A stretch of 33,991 bases of DNA from Candidatus Nomurabacteria bacterium (GCA_029882015.1 JAOULM010000001.1:1-33991), one strand, 5' to 3'. Positions 1-31,316 are shown, counted from the stretch's first letter. Translations and numbers: made by a program. Notes: generated by a model from the letters alone, not told the origin.

Positions 1-984
1 TATAAAACTGGGGTTGCTGATTATATGATTGCGGAATACCGATCGGGACGAACCCCCAACCCAGACGTCATGTGTAATCGCGAAGTAAAATTTGGAGGGT
101 TTTTGGATTGGGCGCTGGAACGTGGAGCAGATTTTGTTGCGACAGGGCATTATGCGCAAGTCACCACTTCCTCCTCCCCTGATGCAGGGGAGGTGCCGAG
201 GCACGAGGCGGAGGGGTATCAAAAAACCAATACCCCCCAGCCCTTCGGGCTGCCCCCCTACATAGGGGGGCAGGCGCGGTTTCAGCTCTTGCGTGGAATT
301 GACCCAGGCAAAGACCAATCATATTTTTTGTGGACCTTGACCCAGGATCAGTTGAAACATATTTTGTTTCCAGTCGGACATCTAATAAAAGACGAAACAC
401 GGAAACTTGCCGAGAAATACGAACTACCAACGGCCACAAAAAAAGATTCCCAAGGGGTTTGTTTTATTGGTGAAATAGATATGAAGGAATTTCTGGGGCA
501 TTATATTAACCACCAACCAGGGGATGTATTGAATACTGACGGAAAGATTATTGGACATCATGATGGAGCATTGTTTTTTACATTGGGTGAACGTCATGGA
601 TTTACAATCCTATCCAAAGGAACAGACGAGAGTCGGTATTATGTGGTGGATAAAGATATCAAGAAAAATACTATTACCGTCTCTGAAAATATTGATAATC
701 AAAAAGAAAATTATGGAAAAGGGCAACAAATAACCATAACCAATATAAACATGATTTCCGAGCCACTTCGTCCTGGGCAATCATACGATGCACAGATTCG
801 TTACCATGGTGAAATCAAGAAAATGACACTCAGCGGAATCAAGGGTGATACCGCAAGTGTGGTTCTGGCTGGTCACGACGCAACGATTGCCCCTGGGCAA
901 TCGTTGGTTATCTACCTGCCTGGCGAACAGTCGGGTAATGGTGATATTTGTTTGGGTGGTGGAGTGATCGATTCTGTCGCCTAG
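1..984 (+). CDS. mnmA: tRNA-specific 2-thiouridylase MnmA, 5'-truncated by window edge; carries an in-frame repeat insertion (see repeat 169-275)
   Basis: Frame 1 is open from nt 1. Motifs GRTPNPDVMCN, FVATGHYA, LLRGIDPGKDQSYFLW and DSQGVCFIGE are typical of MnmA. Stop TAG at 982-984. Confidence 0.9.
   Translation, partial: YKTGVADYMIAEYRSGRTPNPDVMCNREVKFGGFLDWALERGADFVATGHYAQVTTSSSPDAGEVPRHEAEGYQKTNTPQPFGLPPYIGGQARFQLLRGIDPGKDQSYFLWTLTQDQLKHILFPVGHLIKDETRKLAEKYELPTATKKDSQGVCFIGEIDMKEFLGHYINHQPGDVLNTDGKIIGHHDGALFFTLGERHGFTILSKGTDESRYYVVDKDIKKNTITVSENIDNQKENYGKGQQITITNINMISEPLRPGQSYDAQIRYHGEIKKMTLSGIKGDTASVVLAGHDATIAPGQSLVIYLPGEQSGNGDICLGGGVIDSVA
169..275 (+). repeat. GC-rich palindromic repeat pair (forward unit 169-219, inverted unit 231-275) inside the mnmA reading frame
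   Basis: tcctcctcccctgatgcaggggaggtgccgaggcacgaggcggaggggtat closely matches 10451-10500, 14890-14935 and 30603-30647. The second half is an inverted, diverged copy. Confidence 0.85.
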
Positions 985-9981: not shown

Positions 9982-10392
9982 ATGTCAGCAGTAACTAAAA
10001 AAACAAAATACATTCCAGCAATCGGACGACGTAAAACTGCCAGCGCACAGGTACGTTTGTTCGAGGCTGCTAAAACTGAAGTCATCATCAACGATAAAAA
10101 ATTGTCAGAATATTTTAAAACTGATGATCAGATCAAAATCGTAAACGATGCTTTTAATACATTGAAATTGGATCAAGAATTCAAAGTAACCGTATTGGTA
10201 AAAGGTGGGGGATTACATGCCCAAGCCGAAGCCGTACGTCACGGAATCTCACGTGCATTGGTAGAACGCGACGAAGCATCACGTGTTCCATTAAAAAAAG
10301 AAGGGTTCCTAAAACGTGACCCACGTTCAAAAGAACGAAACAAACCAGGACTCCGCGGAGCACGTCGTGCCCCACAGTGGTCAAAACGTTAA
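9982..10392 (+). CDS. rpsI: 30S ribosomal protein S9
   Basis: GRRKTASAQVRL...GGGLHAQAEAVRHGISRAL...RDPRSKERNKPGLRGARRAPQWSKR. Confidence 0.95.
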   Translation: MSAVTKKTKYIPAIGRRKTASAQVRLFEAAKTEVIINDKKLSEYFKTDDQIKIVNDAFNTLKLDQEFKVTVLVKGGGLHAQAEAVRHGISRALVERDEASRVPLKKEGFLKRDPRSKERNKPGLRGARRAPQWSKR

Positions 10393-10410
10393 AACTCAGA
10401 AATCAAAAAA

Positions 10411-10434
10411 ACCACCCTCAGGTGGTTTTTTCTT
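10411..10434 (+). terminator. rho-independent terminator after rpsI
   Basis: ACCACC-ctca-GGTGGT followed by TTTTTTCTTT, preceded by an A-run. Confidence 0.7.
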
Positions 10435-10450
10435 TGCTCTGGTAAATATA

Positions 10451-10780
10451 TCCTCCTCCCCTATGTAGGGGAGGTGCCGAGGAACGAGGCGGAGGGGTAT
10501 CAGACATAACCACCCAAACCCCCGTCTTCCCGGGCTCCGACCCGGGATCCAGAAACATCCCTACCAACCCTCAAGTGTCATCCCCGCGCAGACGGGGATC
10601 TTGTTTTAATTCTTTTCTTTTTTCTTGGCAAAAAAGAAACAAAAACCCAAGGCCTGTACCGAACTCTCTCAGAATTATCTAAAACTACATTCGTTATTTT
10701 TCAGGGGGCACTACGTTAGCCTGCTGAAAAATACCTGCGGACACTCATTCCATTTTGAAATTCTGGTTCGTTCGATAGGG
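10451..10780 (+). repeat. mosaic structured intergenic repeat, copy A (modules H1, H2, H3, E)
   Basis: H1 is 10451-10500. H2 (10522-10553) is identical to 14959-14990. H3 (10611-10641) is identical to 14992-15022. E (10647-10780) aligns with 15108-15242. An extra hairpin ATCCCCG/CGGGGAT lies at 10580-10599. Confidence 0.85.
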
Positions 10781-12864: not shown

Positions 12865-12940
12865 TGTCATCCTGAATTTATTTCAGGATCTCATAGACCA
12901 AAAATACAAACTTAGATTCTGAAATAAATTCAGAATGACA
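12865..12940. promoter_or_regulatory. inverted pair of 29-nt palindromic elements in the grpE-dnaK spacer
   Basis: TGTCATCCTGAATTTATTTCAGGATCTCA (12865-12893) versus the reverse complement of 12912-12940, TGTCATTCTGAATTTATTTCAGAATCTAA. 26/29 identical. The two stem differences are compensatory (C:G to T:A). Confidence 0.6.
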
Positions 12941-12970
12941 AAATACTTACTAAATAATCTAAAAAATACT

Positions 12971-14881
12971 ATGTCAAAAATAATTGGAATCGATCTAGGG
13001 ACAACAAACAGCGCCGTCGCAATCATCGAGGGGGGGCAACCAAAAATAATTGAAAACGCCGAGGGAAACCGTACCACTCCGTCGATTGTTGCTATTGCAA
13101 AAAATGGTGACCGTTTGGCTGGTGAATTGGCAAAACGCCAAGCCATCACCAACCCACAAAATACTATTTACGGAATCAAACGATACATGGGGCACAAATA
13201 CGAAGACGACGTTATCAAAAAAGACGTCGACGTGGTGCCGTACACTATCAAAAAAGGTAAAGACGGCGGAGCTATGATAACTATGGGCGACAAAGATTAT
13301 CGCCCCGAGGAAGTTTCAGCAATGATCTTGCAGAAAATCAAAGCCGACGTCGAAGCCAAAACAGGTGAAAAAATAACCGAGGCCGTAATCACCGTTCCGG
13401 CGTATTTCAACGATGACCAACGTAAAGCCACAATCGATGCGGGTAAAATCGCGGGACTCGATGTTAAACGAATCATCAACGAACCAACTGCTGCCGCATT
13501 GGCATACGGGTTCGACAAAAAGACTGACGAAAAAATCGCCGTATACGATTTCGGTGGGGGTACTTTTGATATCTCAATTTTGGAGGTAGGCGCAGACGTC
13601 GTCGAGGTAAAATCTACAGGTGGTGATAGCCATATGGGGGGACGTGATATTGACCAGGCTATTATCAAATGGATCGGAACTGAATTCAAAAAAGAATCAG
13701 GTATCGATATCACTGCAGACAAATTGGCACTGCAACGTTTGGACGAGGCAGCCGAAAAAGCCAAAAAGGAATTGTCATCAGCGCCAGAAACTGAAATCAA
13801 TATTCCATTTATTACATCAGATGCGAACGGTCCAAAACACTTGTTGTTGAAATTGACTCGTGCTCAACTGGAAGACTTGGCAATGCCATACATCGAAAAA
13901 TCAATCAAAATCACAGGGGACGTACTAAAAGATTCTGGATTCAAAGCTGGCGAAATTAACCAGGTTATCTTGGTGGGAGGACAAACACGTATGCCAAAAA
14001 TCCAAGAAGAGGTTCAGAAACTATTCGGTCAAGAACCAAACCGAACGATTAACCCCGACGAGGTAGTCGCCGCAGGAGCCGCCGTACAGGCCGGAGTCTT
14101 GCAGGGTGACGTCAAAGACGTGTTGTTGCTCGACGTTATTCCATTGTCGCTGGGAATCGAAACCATGGGGGGTGTCGCAACAAAATTGATCGAAAAAAAT
14201 GCAACGATCCCAACATCACACAGCCAGGTATTCTCGACCGCAACAGACAACCAGTCATCAGTCGAGATTGTCATCGCACAGGGAGAACGACCCATGGCGG
14301 CCGACAACAAACCATTGGGACGATTCGTATTAGATGGTATCGCGCCAGCGCCGCGTGGTATCCCACAGGTAGAGGTAACGTTCGACGTTGATGCCAACGG
14401 AGTGCTGAGCGTGTCTGCCAAAGACAAAGCAACCGGCAAAGAAAACAGTATCCGTATCGAGGGATCATCAGGACTATCAGACGAAGAAATCGAAAAAATG
14501 AAAGCCGACGCGGAAACACACGCCGACGAAGATGCCAAGAAAAAAGAAAACGTAGAATCTAAAAATATGTTAGACACTGCTATTTTCACCGCAGAAAAGG
14601 GGCTAAAAGACAACGCAGACAAAATTAGCGACGAGGTCAAAACCGCAGTCCAAGAAAAAATCGATGCAGCGAAAACTGCCAAAGATTCGGATGATATGGA
14701 CGTAGTAAAAAAAGCCACCGAAGAACTGGCAACCGAAATGCAAAAAATCGGCGAGGAAATGGCAAAAGCTGGTGAAAAAACAGAATCTGATTCAGACGAT
14801 GTCAGCCCAGCAGGGGACAAAGTCGAAGACAAAGAGGGAAATGCAGATAATGTAACTGACGCGGAAACAGAAGAGAAATAA
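12971..14881 (+). CDS. dnaK: molecular chaperone DnaK (Hsp70)
   Basis: [72 protein letters not shown]. Start taken at the conserved [14 protein letters not shown]. Confidence 0.98.
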
Positions 14882-14889
14882 CACAACCA

Positions 14890-15242
14890 TCCTCCTACCC
14901 TATGCAGGGGAGGTGCCCGTAGGGCGGAGGGGTATTAAACATAAAATACCAAACCTATCCGTCTTCCCGGGCTCCGACCCGGGATCCAGAATCTTTTCTT
15001 TTTTCTTGGCAAAAAAGAAACACCCGATGAAATATATTCGCTACCGCTCATTATTTCCCTGGATAAAAACAATATAGTCACTATGTTCCTTATTGTTAGT
15101 TAAAAATCCAAGGCCTGTATCTCGCTCTCTCAGAATTTCTAAAACTCTCGTTCACTATTTTTCAAGGGGCACTCCGTATAGCCTTTTGAAAAATTAAAAA
15201 CGTTCACTTTCGTTTTGAAATTCTGGTTCGCTCGATAAGGGC
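14890..15242 (+). repeat. mosaic structured intergenic repeat, copy B (modules H1, H2, H3, insert, E)
   Basis: Same module order as copy A. It has an ~85-nt unique AT-rich insert (15023-15107) between H3 and E. Confidence 0.85.
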
Positions 15243-27223: not shown

Positions 27224-28642
27224 ATGCGAACACTAATAAAAAACTTAAATACACAAAAGGGAGAGACCGTAACAATAAACGGTTGGGTTCACGTTGCGCG
27301 GGATCAGGGGAAAATGGCTTTCTTTGATTTTCGTGACATGACCGGAACCGTACAGGGTGTCGTATTCGGAAAACCAGAGGTTTTGGAAATTGCCAAAACC
27401 TTGCGTCCAGAATGGGTTGTTGCCGTAACTGGTATTGTGAACGAACGACCCGAAAAAATGGTCAAAGCTGGCGTATTAAACGGCGACATCGAATTGGAAA
27501 TTACAGAAATTACAGTATTGAACACAGCGACGACGCCAGCATTTGAATTGACCGAAAGCACTATAGGAATCAACGAACGTGTGCGATTGGAAAATCGCTA
27601 TGTTGATTTGCGAACTGATCGCTTGCAGAAAAACCTGCGCATGCGTCACGCCGTGGCGAAACTGACTCGGGATATTTTGGATGACGAGGGATTCACAGAA
27701 ATCGAGACTCCGTTGTTTACGAAATCAACTCCCGAGGGGGCTCGCGATTATGTCGTGCCTGCGCGTCTGTACCCAGGACAGTTTTACGCACTGCCACAGT
27801 CACCTCAGCAGTATAAACAGCTATTGATGGCTGGGGGCATCGAGCGGTATTTTCAGTTTGCAAAATGTATGCGCGACGAGGATACCCGTGGTGACCGTCA
27901 ACCAGAATTTACACAGATGGACATGGAGATGTCATTCGCGACCGAAGACGAAATCATGGCAATCAACGAAAAGGTCTTGATAGCTATTGTTGAAAAACTA
28001 TATCCAGAAAAACGAATCCAAACAGTTCCATTCCCACGCATTACGTATGCCGAGGCTATGGAAAAACATGGTAGCGATCGACCTGATCTACGTGAAGACA
28101 AAACCGACGACAATCTATTGGCGTTTGCGTGGGTGGTGGACTGGCCATTTTTCGAAAAAACTGCGGACAGCGATGATCCACAGGCAACAGGAGAATGGAC
28201 GTTTACGCATAACCCATTTTCATTGTCGAAACCAGAACATATCGAGAACTTGAAAAACAAAACAAACATCGGTGACATCATGGCGTCACAGTACGACATT
28301 ACATTGAACGGACTGGAAATCGGTGGGGGATCAATCCGAGCCCATGATCCAGAAATCTTGAAATCTATTTTGCAGATTTTGGGACACAGCGATGAAAAAA
28401 TTGAAAAGAATTTCGGTCACATGTTGCGCGCATTGGGATCAGGAACACCACCACACGGGGGAATCGCGTGGGGGTTTGACCGATTGATGATGATCCTGCA
28501 AAACGAACCAAACATCCGCGAGGTAATCGCATTTCCAAAAACCGGCGAAGGTCGCGATCTGATGATGGATTCACCGTCACCAATTTCAGACCAGCAGTTG
28601 GGGGAATTGAATATTAAATTAGATTTACCAGTAGAAGAGTAG
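27224..28642 (+). CDS. aspS: aspartyl-tRNA synthetase, bacterial-type sequence but lacking the GAD insertion domain (472 aa)
   Basis: OB-fold N-terminus, FYALPQSPQQYKQLLM, PEFTQMDMEMSF, FTHNPF, GGGSIR, PPHGGIAWGFDRL. Confidence 0.95.
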   Translation: MRTLIKNLNTQKGETVTINGWVHVARDQGKMAFFDFRDMTGTVQGVVFGKPEVLEIAKTLRPEWVVAVTGIVNERPEKMVKAGVLNGDIELEITEITVLNTATTPAFELTESTIGINERVRLENRYVDLRTDRLQKNLRMRHAVAKLTRDILDDEGFTEIETPLFTKSTPEGARDYVVPARLYPGQFYALPQSPQQYKQLLMAGGIERYFQFAKCMRDEDTRGDRQPEFTQMDMEMSFATEDEIMAINEKVLIAIVEKLYPEKRIQTVPFPRITYAEAMEKHGSDRPDLREDKTDDNLLAFAWVVDWPFFEKTADSDDPQATGEWTFTHNPFSLSKPEHIENLKNKTNIGDIMASQYDITLNGLEIGGGSIRAHDPEILKSILQILGHSDEKIEKNFGHMLRALGSGTPPHGGIAWGFDRLMMILQNEPNIREVIAFPKTGEGRDLMMDSPSPISDQQLGELNIKLDLPVEE

Positions 28643-28648
28643 AAAAAA

Positions 28649-28707
28649 ATACCCCTCAGTCTCGCTCGTACCTCGTTCGACAGCTCCCCTACATAGGGGA
28701 GGAGGGA
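28649..28707 (-). repeat. GC-rich palindromic repeat unit, long variant, inverted orientation, 7 nt after the aspS stop
   Basis: atacccctcagtctcgctcgtacctcgttcgacagctcccctacataggggaggaggga is near-identical to 30672-30728. Confidence 0.85.
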
Positions 28708-28730
28708 CGCGTTGAAATCAGGTAAATAAA

Positions 28731-28757
28731 AAAGGAGTCCCGAAATGGGGCTCCTTT
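28731..28757. terminator. bidirectional hairpin between convergent aspS and orf 28760
   Basis: AAAGGAGTCCC-gaaat-GGGGCTCCTTT, with the same TAAATAAAAAAGGAG lead-in as 29250-29283. Confidence 0.65.
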
Positions 28758-28759
28758 TG

Positions 28760-29182
28760 CTAGTCTTGTGATACTTTCTTTAGCGGGTTCATCAGTTCAG
28801 TGATAGATCCTTCTTTGAAGGGAACTATTAAACAAGTGTCGAATAAATCATCAAACACATTAATTTTTGTTTCCCCTATATAAATTAGTTTAGGCCGACA
28901 TTTCGATAACTTTAATAGGTCGTATATTTCCCGTATTTCTCTTTCAACTCGGATATTCATTATCTCGGCTGGGGGAAATGGTGTGGTTTTTTTGAAGCTA
29001 TTGGCTGTTGCTACTGACTGATCAACAATAATAATACCGTAATCAGTTATATCATTAATCTTTTTGGTATCGAGGCTTTCTTCCCAGATTACATTGTGAC
29101 CCTTGGATCTGAGATAATCGATAGTCTTTTTTGGGTTCTCGGGTATTGCACAGTTTCCAATCCCTAGAAATAACATTTTCAT
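28760..29182 (-). CDS. hypothetical protein, predicted flavodoxin/receiver-like alpha-beta fold (140 aa)
   Basis: MKMLFLGIGN...DYGIIIVDQ...IYDLL. Own TTGACA-16-TATTAT promoter and hairpin terminator. Distantly similar to 29292-29780. Confidence 0.55.
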   Translation of the reverse strand: MKMLFLGIGNCAIPENPKKTIDYLRSKGHNVIWEESLDTKKINDITDYGIIIVDQSVATANSFKKTTPFPPAEIMNIRVEREIREIYDLLKLSKCRPKLIYIGETKINVFDDLFDTCLIVPFKEGSITELMNPLKKVSQD

Positions 29183-29865: not shown

Positions 29866-30582
29866 ATGGCTTTTAAACTTGAAACTGAACAATTTTCTGG
29901 ACCGTTGGAGGTTTTGCTGGACATGATCCAAAAACGCAAACTTCCGATCAATGATATTTCATTATCACAGATTACGGATGAATACCTGAGCTATGTGCAG
30001 GGGATTGATAAATCACATTTCGGAGATGTGACATATTTTCTCGTGGTGGCATCTACGTTGATGTTGATTAAATCAAAATCATTGTTGCCGACTATTGACT
30101 TGACCGAAGACGAGGAAGACTCGATCATGGATCTGGAGCGACGCTTGAAAACATTACAGGTTTATCAACGACACATGGATTCCTTGAATGACCGTATTAC
30201 AAATAACAAACGATTGTATTTTGGAACAGGCGAGCGAGCCAAACGAGTCTTTGCGCCTGATAAAAAAGTAACTTCGCAGGTTCTATTAAATAGTATCCGC
30301 GAGGTGTTATCCATGGTGCCAAAACCGGTTATTAATCCCGAGGTGCGCGTTCGGACTGTTATCCATATCGAGGACATGATGCAGTCGCTAGAAGACCGCC
30401 TGAGAACCGCGCTGAAAACCAGTTTCCGTGATCTGACAAAACCGAGTGACGGAATGACATCTGCCGAAGCCAAGACCCACGCCGTGGTTGGGTTTATTGC
30501 CATGCTGGAGATGGTGAAAAACGGGCTGTGTGATGTTATGCAGGATGAACATTATTCAGATATCGCAATCGAGCGGGTGTGA
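29866..30582 (+). CDS. scpA: segregation and condensation protein A
   Basis: FSGPLEVLLDMIQKRKLPINDISLSQITDEYLSYV is typical of the ScpA N-terminus. Confidence 0.85.
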   Translation: MAFKLETEQFSGPLEVLLDMIQKRKLPINDISLSQITDEYLSYVQGIDKSHFGDVTYFLVVASTLMLIKSKSLLPTIDLTEDEEDSIMDLERRLKTLQVYQRHMDSLNDRITNNKRLYFGTGERAKRVFAPDKKVTSQVLLNSIREVLSMVPKPVINPEVRVRTVIHIEDMMQSLEDRLRTALKTSFRDLTKPSDGMTSAEAKTHAVVGFIAMLEMVKNGLCDVMQDEHYSDIAIERV

Positions 30583-30602
30583 TAGAATAAAGCCATCATA
30601 GC

Positions 30603-30728
30603 CCTCCTCCCCTATGTAGGGGAGGTGCCCGTAGGGCGGAGGGGTATCAATATATAAACACCTTAAAAACAATACCCCTCAGTCTCACTCGTACCTCGTT
30701 CGACAGCTCCCCTACATAGGGGAGCAGG
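30603..30728. repeat. GC-rich palindromic repeat pair (forward unit 30603-30647, inverted long unit 30672-30728) filling the scpA-scpB spacer
   Basis: The forward unit is near-identical to 14890-14935. The inverted unit is near-identical to 28649-28707. The architecture matches the pair inside mnmA. Confidence 0.85.
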
Positions 30729-30743
30729 ACATTTTTAATTTTT

Positions 30744-31316
30744 ATGAACCTATCTGACACACAATTAATCGAGGCATTATTGTTCGCAACAGGCGAGCCA
30801 GTTTTGATTTCTGACCTAGCAAAAAAACTGGGATGGAAGCCAAACCAGGCGAGCGAGGCCCTGGAGAATTTGCAGAATAATTTGGGTGACCGTGGAATTC
30901 AACTTTTAGTTAATGGTGACATCACTGACGAAAAAACATCGGTGTCATTGGTCACACATCCAGACGCCGGGGAACTGTTGGCGAAACTTCGCAAGGATGA
31001 ACTGTCAGCGCCATTGACCCGCGCTGTTTTGGAAACTTTTGCAACTATTGCGTATAGCACCGATGGTATAACCAAACCCGAGATTGATTATATCCGCGGG
31101 GTTAACTGTGGGCACGCACTGCGTACATTGTTGGTCCGTGGCTTGATTGAAAAAATGGCAAATCCAGATGACAAGCGTTCATCAAAATATCGTATGTCAT
31201 CGGACGCATTGGCCGAGCTGGGCGTAACGACTCTGGATCAGATGCCAGAATTTGCAGATGTACAAACAGAATTGACCGGTGTTACCAGCGAGATGAAAAC
31301 CGACGATGCGGAATAA
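30744..31316 (+). CDS. scpB: segregation and condensation protein B
   Basis: LIEALLFATGEPVLISDLAKKLG...AVLETFATIAY...ITKPEIDYIRGVNCGHALRTLLVRGLI. Confidence 0.85.
   Translation: MNLSDTQLIEALLFATGEPVLISDLAKKLGWKPNQASEALENLQNNLGDRGIQLLVNGDITDEKTSVSLVTHPDAGELLAKLRKDELSAPLTRAVLETFATIAYSTDGITKPEIDYIRGVNCGHALRTLLVRGLIEKMANPDDKRSSKYRMSSDALAELGVTTLDQMPEFADVQTELTGVTSEMKTDDAE

Follow-up and report, generated by a model that had tools for sequence, protein, structure and literature searches.

The genes scpA and scpB form a normally tight pair, and the locus studied here raises the question of what separates them by 161 nt in a bacterium of the Candidatus Nomurabacteria (CPR/Patescibacteria), and how it came to be there. 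The spacer (positions 30,583 to 30,743) lies in a 33,991-nt stretch of DNA, referred to below as the window, which is contig C41 of a 651-kb metagenome-assembled genome (MAG; 66 contigs, 39.8% GC, 97.7% complete) whose gene calls are crude and ORF-based. The initial annotation, made from the window alone, read the spacer as a head-to-head pair of GC-rich, REP/BIME-like hairpin units from a family parked after stop codons, and suggested that the family might be mobile and might act as a terminator or mRNA 3′-end stabiliser. That reading missed the in-frame copies in essential genes, the 27-mer that recurs across phyla and the link to DUF559, all of which are described below.

When the window is searched with a covariance model, seven units are placed in it (Table 1), and every copy that had been listed is present. 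The identities of mnmA, rpsI, dnaK, aspS, scpA and scpB were confirmed with Pfam and NCBIfam, and at four loci the units do begin shortly after a stop codon, at the gaps given in the table; the pair at 169-275 lies within the mnmA frame and not after a stop codon. The units are 63% GC against 39.8% for the genome, in agreement with the earlier judgement by eye, and the two long inverted copies are near-identical, as had been noted (95% identity). In the scpA-scpB spacer the doublet takes up ~128 of the 161 nt, with its GGGGTAT tails facing each other, an arrangement from which the term "head-to-head" differs in naming only. The same junction measures -4 to 35 nt in 12 relatives. This tight junction, together with inserts in TsaD and MnmA that have no counterpart in solved structures, upholds the idea of an insertion origin, and the family thus sits at sites that are empty in relatives, the scpA-scpB junction included. 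No near relative of this genome was found in genome or metagenome collections, the nearest TsaD being ~55% identical.

Table 1. Hairpin units, host genes and terminator-like hairpins in the window.
Feature	Position	Strand	Remarks
A unit, scpA-scpB doublet	30602-30647	+	19 nt past scpA stop; covariance model 68.4 bits; holds the cross-phylum invariant 27-mer; sequence CCCTCCTCCCCT-ATGT-AGGGGAGG-TGCCCGTAGGGCGG-AGGGGTAT
A-rich linker between the doublet's two tails	30648-30671		no significant similarity to DUF559 cassette gene ends
Inverted B unit with long internal hairpin, scpA-scpB doublet	30672-30729	-	covariance model 66.6 bits
scpA, upstream of doublet	29866-30582	+	Pfam SMC_ScpA, E=3e-20
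scpB, downstream of doublet	30744-31316	+	Pfam SMC_ScpB, E=7e-30
Solo B unit after aspS	28649-28706	-	6 nt past stop codon
Solo A unit after dnaK	14890-14935	+	8 nt past stop; followed by linker and other hairpin modules
Solo A unit after rpsI	10451-10500	+	58 nt past stop; best covariance-model score, 78.3 bits
A unit in frame within mnmA	169-219	+	encodes ..SSPDAGEVPRHEAEGY
Inverted B′ unit in frame within mnmA	230-275	-	encodes NTPQPFGLPPYIGGQ
rpsI	9982-10392		Pfam and NCBIfam
dnaK	12935-14881		Pfam and NCBIfam
aspS	27224-28642		Pfam and NCBIfam
Terminator-like hairpin, rpsI	~10407-10436		A unit of rpsI lies downstream of it
Bidirectional terminator-like hairpin, aspS	~28728-28760		B unit of aspS lies upstream of it

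A census of the whole genome shows that the family is dispersed and not confined to the window. About 45 units (45 by nhmmer, 44 by the covariance model) occupy 35 loci on ~25 contigs, and their flanks are unrelated, so that local duplication does not account for them. The rpsI and dnaK copies are partly segmental, since they have ~330 nt of further downstream modules in common. Of the 45 palindromic units, 31 are extragenic and 14 (~31%) lie inside coding frames. Each unit is ~46-58 nt long and consists, in order, of a pyrimidine arm (CCTsCTCCCCT), a loop of 4-6 nt, the arm AGGGGAGs, a variable internal hairpin and the tail AGGGGTAT. These parts fold into a three-helix Y: the 5′ CCCT and the terminal GGGG form P1, the main hairpin is P2 and the variable one P3. 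Two subtypes, A (...AGGTGCC...GGCGG) and B (...AGCTGTCGA...GAGACTG), are set apart by a C·G/G·C exchange in P2.

The three-helix fold is maintained by compensatory substitutions. In 21 cleanly aligned copies from this genome, 96.5% of the cells are paired and three pairs have changed on both sides, against at most 68% paired in a slid-partner control. With 57 copies from several genomes, which are related and not independent samples and were fitted to the covariance model itself, a caveat on this larger count, 96.2% of the cells are paired and 10 of 15 pairs show double-sided changes, more than in any of 500 shuffles (500/500). A model-based alignment was used for this purpose; MAFFT misplaced the 5′ arm where loop lengths differed.

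Nine loci are doublets, in which an A unit and an inverted B unit turn their GGGGTAT tails inward onto a short A-rich linker, no two linkers being alike. The doublets are 110-136 nt long with terminal inverted repeats of ~23 nt, and their outer arms (pair I8) are 92% complementary over 25 nt; the scpA-scpB doublet is predicted to fold into a 138-nt rod (-64.4 kcal/mol, z=-7.2). Many solo A units run on into a common linker and other hairpin modules, as in a BIME mosaic, and the census and the unit anatomy together bear out the initial description of a REP/BIME-like family of size variants. Direct repeats indicative of a target-site duplication were sought at the boundaries of the nine doublets and ~25 solo units and none was found; TAT stands beside some unit heads at a level that is not distinguishable from the AT-rich background. 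Rfam gave no family match at gathering thresholds, the sole match by E-value, a plant miRNA hairpin, being noise (25 of 135 bits), and a search for tRNA genes found none.

A second family of hairpin modules (GTCTTCCCGGGCTCCGACCCGGGATCC, GTCATCCTGAATTTATTTCAGGATC) follows many solo A units past a shared linker, at 10522-10554, 14959-14991 and 12865-12940 in the window and on contigs C6, C7, C42, C45 and C47; a module resembling it (TGTCATTCCCGCGAAGGCGGGAATCCA) is present in another CPR genome, G449.

Outside this genome the family is patchy. None of 40 relatives, 24 of them from the same family, has its strict 16-mer core; a looser motif was found in 4 of 400 genomes of the class, and the reversed control gave no match. 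The covariance model, which was trained on this one genome, detects related units in 10 of the 150 genomes sampled from the order, among them two independent expansions, in G461 (at least 29 units) and G449 (at least 21 units). The exact 27-mer AGGGGAGGTGCCCGYAGGGCGGAGGGG is found in at least 118 stretches from many phyla, carried by Bacteroidota (including the cultured Bacteroides sp. GD17 and Maribacter), Negativicutes, Deinococcus, Meiothermus, Verrucomicrobiota, Proteobacteria and Patescibacteria, and is always preceded by the arm CCTCCCCT and a variable loop; viral contigs gave 0 matches. A non-coding motif of 27 nt that is identical in distant phyla is unusual in itself, and this identity implies recognition by a conserved partner. 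Literature searches returned nothing matching unit sequence strings, CPR palindromic elements or DUF559 with repeats.

The enrichment after stop codons holds at the scale of the genome. Among the 31 non-coding units, 15 lie within 30 nt after the upstream stop, compared with 14% of random intergenic positions (p=7e-6); unit orientation is that of the upstream gene at 22 of 25 loci (p=1.6e-4), and all nine doublets are A-first relative to local transcription. Because the sign of the GC skew and the gene strand predict unit orientation equally (25/31 each), RNA-level selection and strand-specific insertion are inseparable here. Such biases are what would be expected of host-beneficial cis elements kept by selection, as mRNA 3′-end stabilisers, terminators or host-protein sites, and the compensated fold, the cross-phylum invariant core and the known stabilisation of upstream mRNA by REP elements (PMC3337134) lean the same way. 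We nevertheless consider this explanation improbable. The units have no T-tail, the sequence that follows each of them being A-rich, and a terminator scan called none of them; their position relative to real terminators varies, the rpsI copy lying beyond a canonical one and the aspS copy before one; and replication-strand bias accounts for the orientation equally well. Nor would host benefit readily explain why 31% of the units lie within essential coding frames, why they occur in just 10 of 150 genomes of the order and, by the strict core, in 0 of 24 of the same family, or why an insertion should split scpA from scpB. The terminator or 3′-stabiliser role first suggested for the family is not upheld, given the missing T-tail, the empty terminator scan, the varying position beside terminators and the 14 units in coding frames. 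An RNA-stabilising function for the host may exist as a secondary effect, one that cannot account for the coding copies and the patchy distribution. A promoter scan found no promoter-like site directly upstream of scpB. On the explanation favoured below, the scpA-scpB doublet is one insertion of this family; most likely it is transcribed together with the operon, forming a highly stable hairpin, and it does not act as a terminator.

The 14 units in long open frames bear on the same question from the protein side. In each case the product was confirmed on both sides of the insert, and the hosts are MnmA, TsaD, TsaE, UvrC, RecG, LeuRS, ParB and IleRS, the last with three insertions; in other genomes, in-frame units also occur in MurB-, RecJ- and LigA-like frames. 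Residues 246-280 of TsaD and 57-93 of MnmA have no counterpart in solved homologues (PDB), and in an AlphaFold model of TsaD (pLDDT 83, pTM 0.82) the sole internal stretch of low confidence is 249-279. Essential proteins thus tolerate the units, in frame, within disordered loops. No coding copy breaks the frame or introduces a stop codon. Forward A units within genes are mostly read in one frame (..GEVPR.EAEGY), with the GEVPR..AEGY module in the same frame in 5 of 7, and the loops of coding A units differ from the common TATGTA loop, which gives TAG in one frame. Since the frame is kept, stops are absent and the loop variants avoid TAG, the coding copies appear to be translated and not spliced out or bypassed. 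GC-rich palindromes inside the genes of an AT-richer genome do resemble mitochondrial GC clusters, and it could be supposed that in-frame copies go untranslated, being excised from the transcript or bypassed during translation like yeast mitochondrial byp elements or GC clusters. We find this scarcely credible, given that ~10 coding insertions are all frame-keeping and stop-free (chance ~(1/3)^10), that recurrent peptide modules share one reading frame, and that avoidance of TAG in the loops of coding A units is expected only if they are translated.

Several further insertions were observed in coding frames. In many CPR lineages (orthologues P0019-P0117; L027:3700-3800; L029) the TsaD loop that holds the insert here, between ..PGGPEISKLAE.. 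and ..LPRPM.., has independent inserts of 20-45 residues built from different GC-rich hairpins; one "SPLLVEEGVGGGDS" hairpin stands at two different positions in two TsaD orthologues, and the loop seems to be either a hot spot or very permissive. A MurB-like frame in G461 (L053:200-1612) runs to 470 codons, where ~300 are usual, and with several family units in frame it is an extreme example of how they colonise coding regions. Insertions of whole domains, which are separate from the hairpin repeats, are seen in the LeuRS frame (C40:2066-5425, L018), with a NUDIX domain at residues 408-504, and in the IleRS frame (C53:1485-3941, L019), with a histidine-phosphatase (His_Phos_1) domain at residues 161-326. 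A Buchananbacteria LeuRS frame (L106) has comparable extra segments.

If the units are mobile, the obvious candidate for moving them is a RAYT, the Y1 HUH transposase of classical REP and REPIN sequences. The search that the initial annotation proposed for a RAYT/IS200-like transposase came back empty, with no Y1 gene (PF01797) in this 97.7%-complete genome, and one would have to suppose that the gene has been lost or was not assembled. Doublet hairpins of inverted units, variable spacers and the lack of a target-site duplication would all suit REPINs, and 89 of the order's 150 sampled genomes carry a Y1 gene, 9 of the 10 unit-positive ones among them (p=0.037, for related genomes that are not independent samples). 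Against this, we examined 10 Y1 loci in four unit-bearing genomes (G461, G449, G552 and G187) and none is flanked by these units; at 8 of the 10 the Y1 gene has inverted palindromes of its own on either side, several with GTAG at the head (e.g. TGTAGGACTTTAAGTCCTACA), and in the expansion genomes G461 and G449 all 8 Y1 genes are flanked by palindromes other than these units. The GTAG of our units, moreover, is in the hairpin loop and not at the 5′ end. Mobilisation by a RAYT is largely refuted by these observations, and we hold it to be very improbable.

The Y1 (RAYT-like) genes of the order encode proteins of ~220-260 aa and are often present in several copies; because they are frequent and are bracketed by their own palindromes, bona fide REP-RAYT-type systems seem to be common in CPR. 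Other candidate enzymes gave no connection to the units. TnpB, rve and IS110 are absent from this genome. A DDE-like frame with sub-threshold transposase similarity, the one open frame (568 codons) of a 1.7-kb contig (C52:1-1708), has no homologue in the 150 genomes of the order or in other carriers, and this contig may be a mis-binned fragment or a lineage-specific IS. Neither a unit nor a tRNA lies near the only small GIY-YIG gene (C47:8159), and nothing ties the single Xer-like tyrosine recombinase to the units.

A different gene emerged from an unbiased clustering of 2,236 ORFs from 80 cross-phylum 27-mer loci. The top recurrent family beside the 27-mer is DUF559 (PF04480), present at 8 loci and at 6 of them within 0-400 nt of a unit. 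The Nomurabacteria genome has exactly one DUF559 gene, a 124-codon ORF (C1:3059-3433). Read in gene orientation, this cassette consists of an A unit, 8 nt (TTATAAAT) and the ATG, and the last codons and TAG stop of the gene fall inside an inverted B unit, so that the whole has the geometry of a doublet in which the gene replaces the linker. In a survey of PD-(D/E)XK nucleases, DUF559 was grouped with Vsr and the homing endonuclease I-Bth0305I (PMC3424549); the solved structure closest to DUF559 is 3HRL, a protein of unknown function. In the indexed literature that mentions it, DUF559 never appears in a title or abstract, and no title concerns repeats.

The association extends well beyond this cassette. 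Full-length DUF559 is found in 8 of 10 unit-positive but 3 of 140 unit-negative genomes of the order (Fisher p=1.4e-9, related genomes again not being independent samples), which leaves two unit-positive genomes of the sample where it was not found. Around 18 CPR DUF559 genes, model matches within ~100 nt stand on both sides of 10, on one side of four and on neither side of four; both-side flanking also occurs at five loci of other phyla (a member of the Flavobacteriales, two Maribacter, a Bacteroidaceae MAG and a Gammaproteobacteria MAG), and the orientation of the units around the gene varies between lineages. When 80 loci from many phyla were picked by the DUF559 protein alone, most had no model match, and 17 of the 23 matches that were found adjoin the gene. 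A model-free fold profile of these protein-picked loci peaks 40 nt upstream of the gene, where 57% reach -15 kcal/mol or lower against a background of ~11%, with a smaller peak at the stop codon, and the flanking hairpins are of the C-arm, loop, G-arm, G-block type, as in the units. Both here and in other CPR genomes, as well as in other phyla, DUF559 genes are thus physically flanked by the units.

Taken together, the repeats and DUF559 point to an undescribed selfish-DNA system. We favour the explanation that the units are probably gene-less satellites, solo or as inverted A+B doublets, of a small selfish DUF559 cassette bracketed by the same hairpins. The nuclease, a Vsr-like PD-(D/E)xK protein, would recognise or nick the hairpin, probably as extruded or single-stranded DNA, and would thereby copy or move units in trans and without target-site duplication, as RAYT does for REP/REPIN; selection would then leave survivors at permissive sites only. 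That the DUF559 nuclease mobilises the units is what we infer from these arrangements, and PD-(D/E)xK nucleases alone are not known as transposases. The linkers of the doublets have no significant similarity to the gene ends of the cassette, and the idea that doublets are deletion derivatives of it is therefore unsupported.

The main rival to the satellite explanation holds that the units are a landing pad and not cargo: DUF559 would be a homing-type selfish gene that targets the doublet or the space between units, and the units would have spread otherwise, by replication slippage, gene conversion or another enzyme. The exact doublet geometry of the cassette, with the gene in the linker's place, would fit such homing, as would linkers that are unrelated to the gene ends, the fold group that DUF559 shares with I-Bth0305I, and the occupation of just 1 of ~10 doublets in this genome. 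What homing leaves unexplained is how the units arrived at dozens of unrelated sites and, unless the nuclease reads the 27-mer, why that sequence is invariant across phyla; the varying orientation of units around the gene and the many one-sided genes also speak against it, and on balance we think it unlikely.

The satellites and their putative cassette can be set beside four kinds of known element. Like the REP/BIME/REPIN-RAYT sequences of Enterobacteria and Pseudomonas (PMC3337134, PMC3116915), they are short, GC-rich, imperfect palindromes (extragenic here in 31 of 45 cases) that occur as solo units and as inverted doublets folding into one long hairpin, with variable spacers, in mosaic with other modules and without target-site duplication, and a single small nuclease-type gene is flanked by the repeats. 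Where REP-RAYT has an HUH Y1 transposase, this gene encodes a DUF559 Vsr-like PD-(D/E)xK nuclease, and in place of a 20-nt hairpin with a 5′ GTAG the unit forms a three-helix fold of ~50 nt; ~31% of the units are in frame inside genes, and the 27-nt core, in contrast to the species-specific REPs, is shared unchanged between phyla. Rickettsia palindromic elements (RPE; PMC10969869) likewise insert in frame into unrelated housekeeping genes as well as between genes, and give recurrent peptide modules in a preferred frame that are tolerated as extra loops; the likeness is functional only, as the host phylum is unrelated, our units are smaller and GC-rich, and they flank a candidate cognate nuclease gene where none is known for RPE.

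Prokaryotic MITEs (Correia, ERIC, Chunjie; PMC10969869) compare with the doublets in their terminal inverted repeats of ~23 nt and total length of 110-136 nt, in being non-coding and multi-copy with stable stem-loop transcripts, and in having some copies that are intragenic and in frame. They differ in that no target-site duplication is visible here, the doublets are GC-rich and not AT-rich, the parent cassette encodes no known transposase and the linkers are not recognisably derived from the parent. The Vsr-like (EDxHD) enzyme I-Bth0305I and free-standing homing endonuclease genes (PMC3239194, PMC2677866) provide the nearest parallel to the gene itself, as small, selfish-looking nuclease genes of the same PD-(D/E)xK/Vsr fold group that are present at only some of many equivalent sites; DUF559, by contrast, is not in an intron or intein, and is bracketed by multi-copy hairpins that stand gene-less at dozens of unrelated loci.

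More broadly, and with confidence somewhat short of even, DUF559 may be the nuclease of a pan-bacterial selfish element. Its ends would be the GC-rich three-helix hairpin, ultra-conserved in that the 27-nt core is the same from CPR through to Bacteroidota, Deinococcota and Proteobacteria, and its gene-less satellites would have colonised 3′ UTRs and the surface loops of essential proteins. Such an element would be a second, mechanistically different counterpart of REP-RAYT and a source of in-frame hairpin insertions across CPR genomes. If this is true, a nuclease family that is very widespread and has a solved structure but no known role would gain a function open to testing. The hairpin insertions that pervade essential genes in ultra-small CPR genomes, a phenomenon of which we found no description in the literature searched, would likewise gain a concrete candidate for their machinery. 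Direct testing is feasible in cultured carriers such as Bacteroides sp. GD17, Maribacter chungangensis, Croceitalea vernalis, Deinococcus caeni and Nitrosomonas nitrosa. The units also affect annotation, through spurious ORFs, broken assemblies and lengthened conserved proteins.

In two other carriers of the unit, a Clostridia MAG (L134) and a Bacteroidetes MAG (L079), head-to-tail tandem arrays with periods of ~43 and ~105 nt replace the solo units or inverted doublets.
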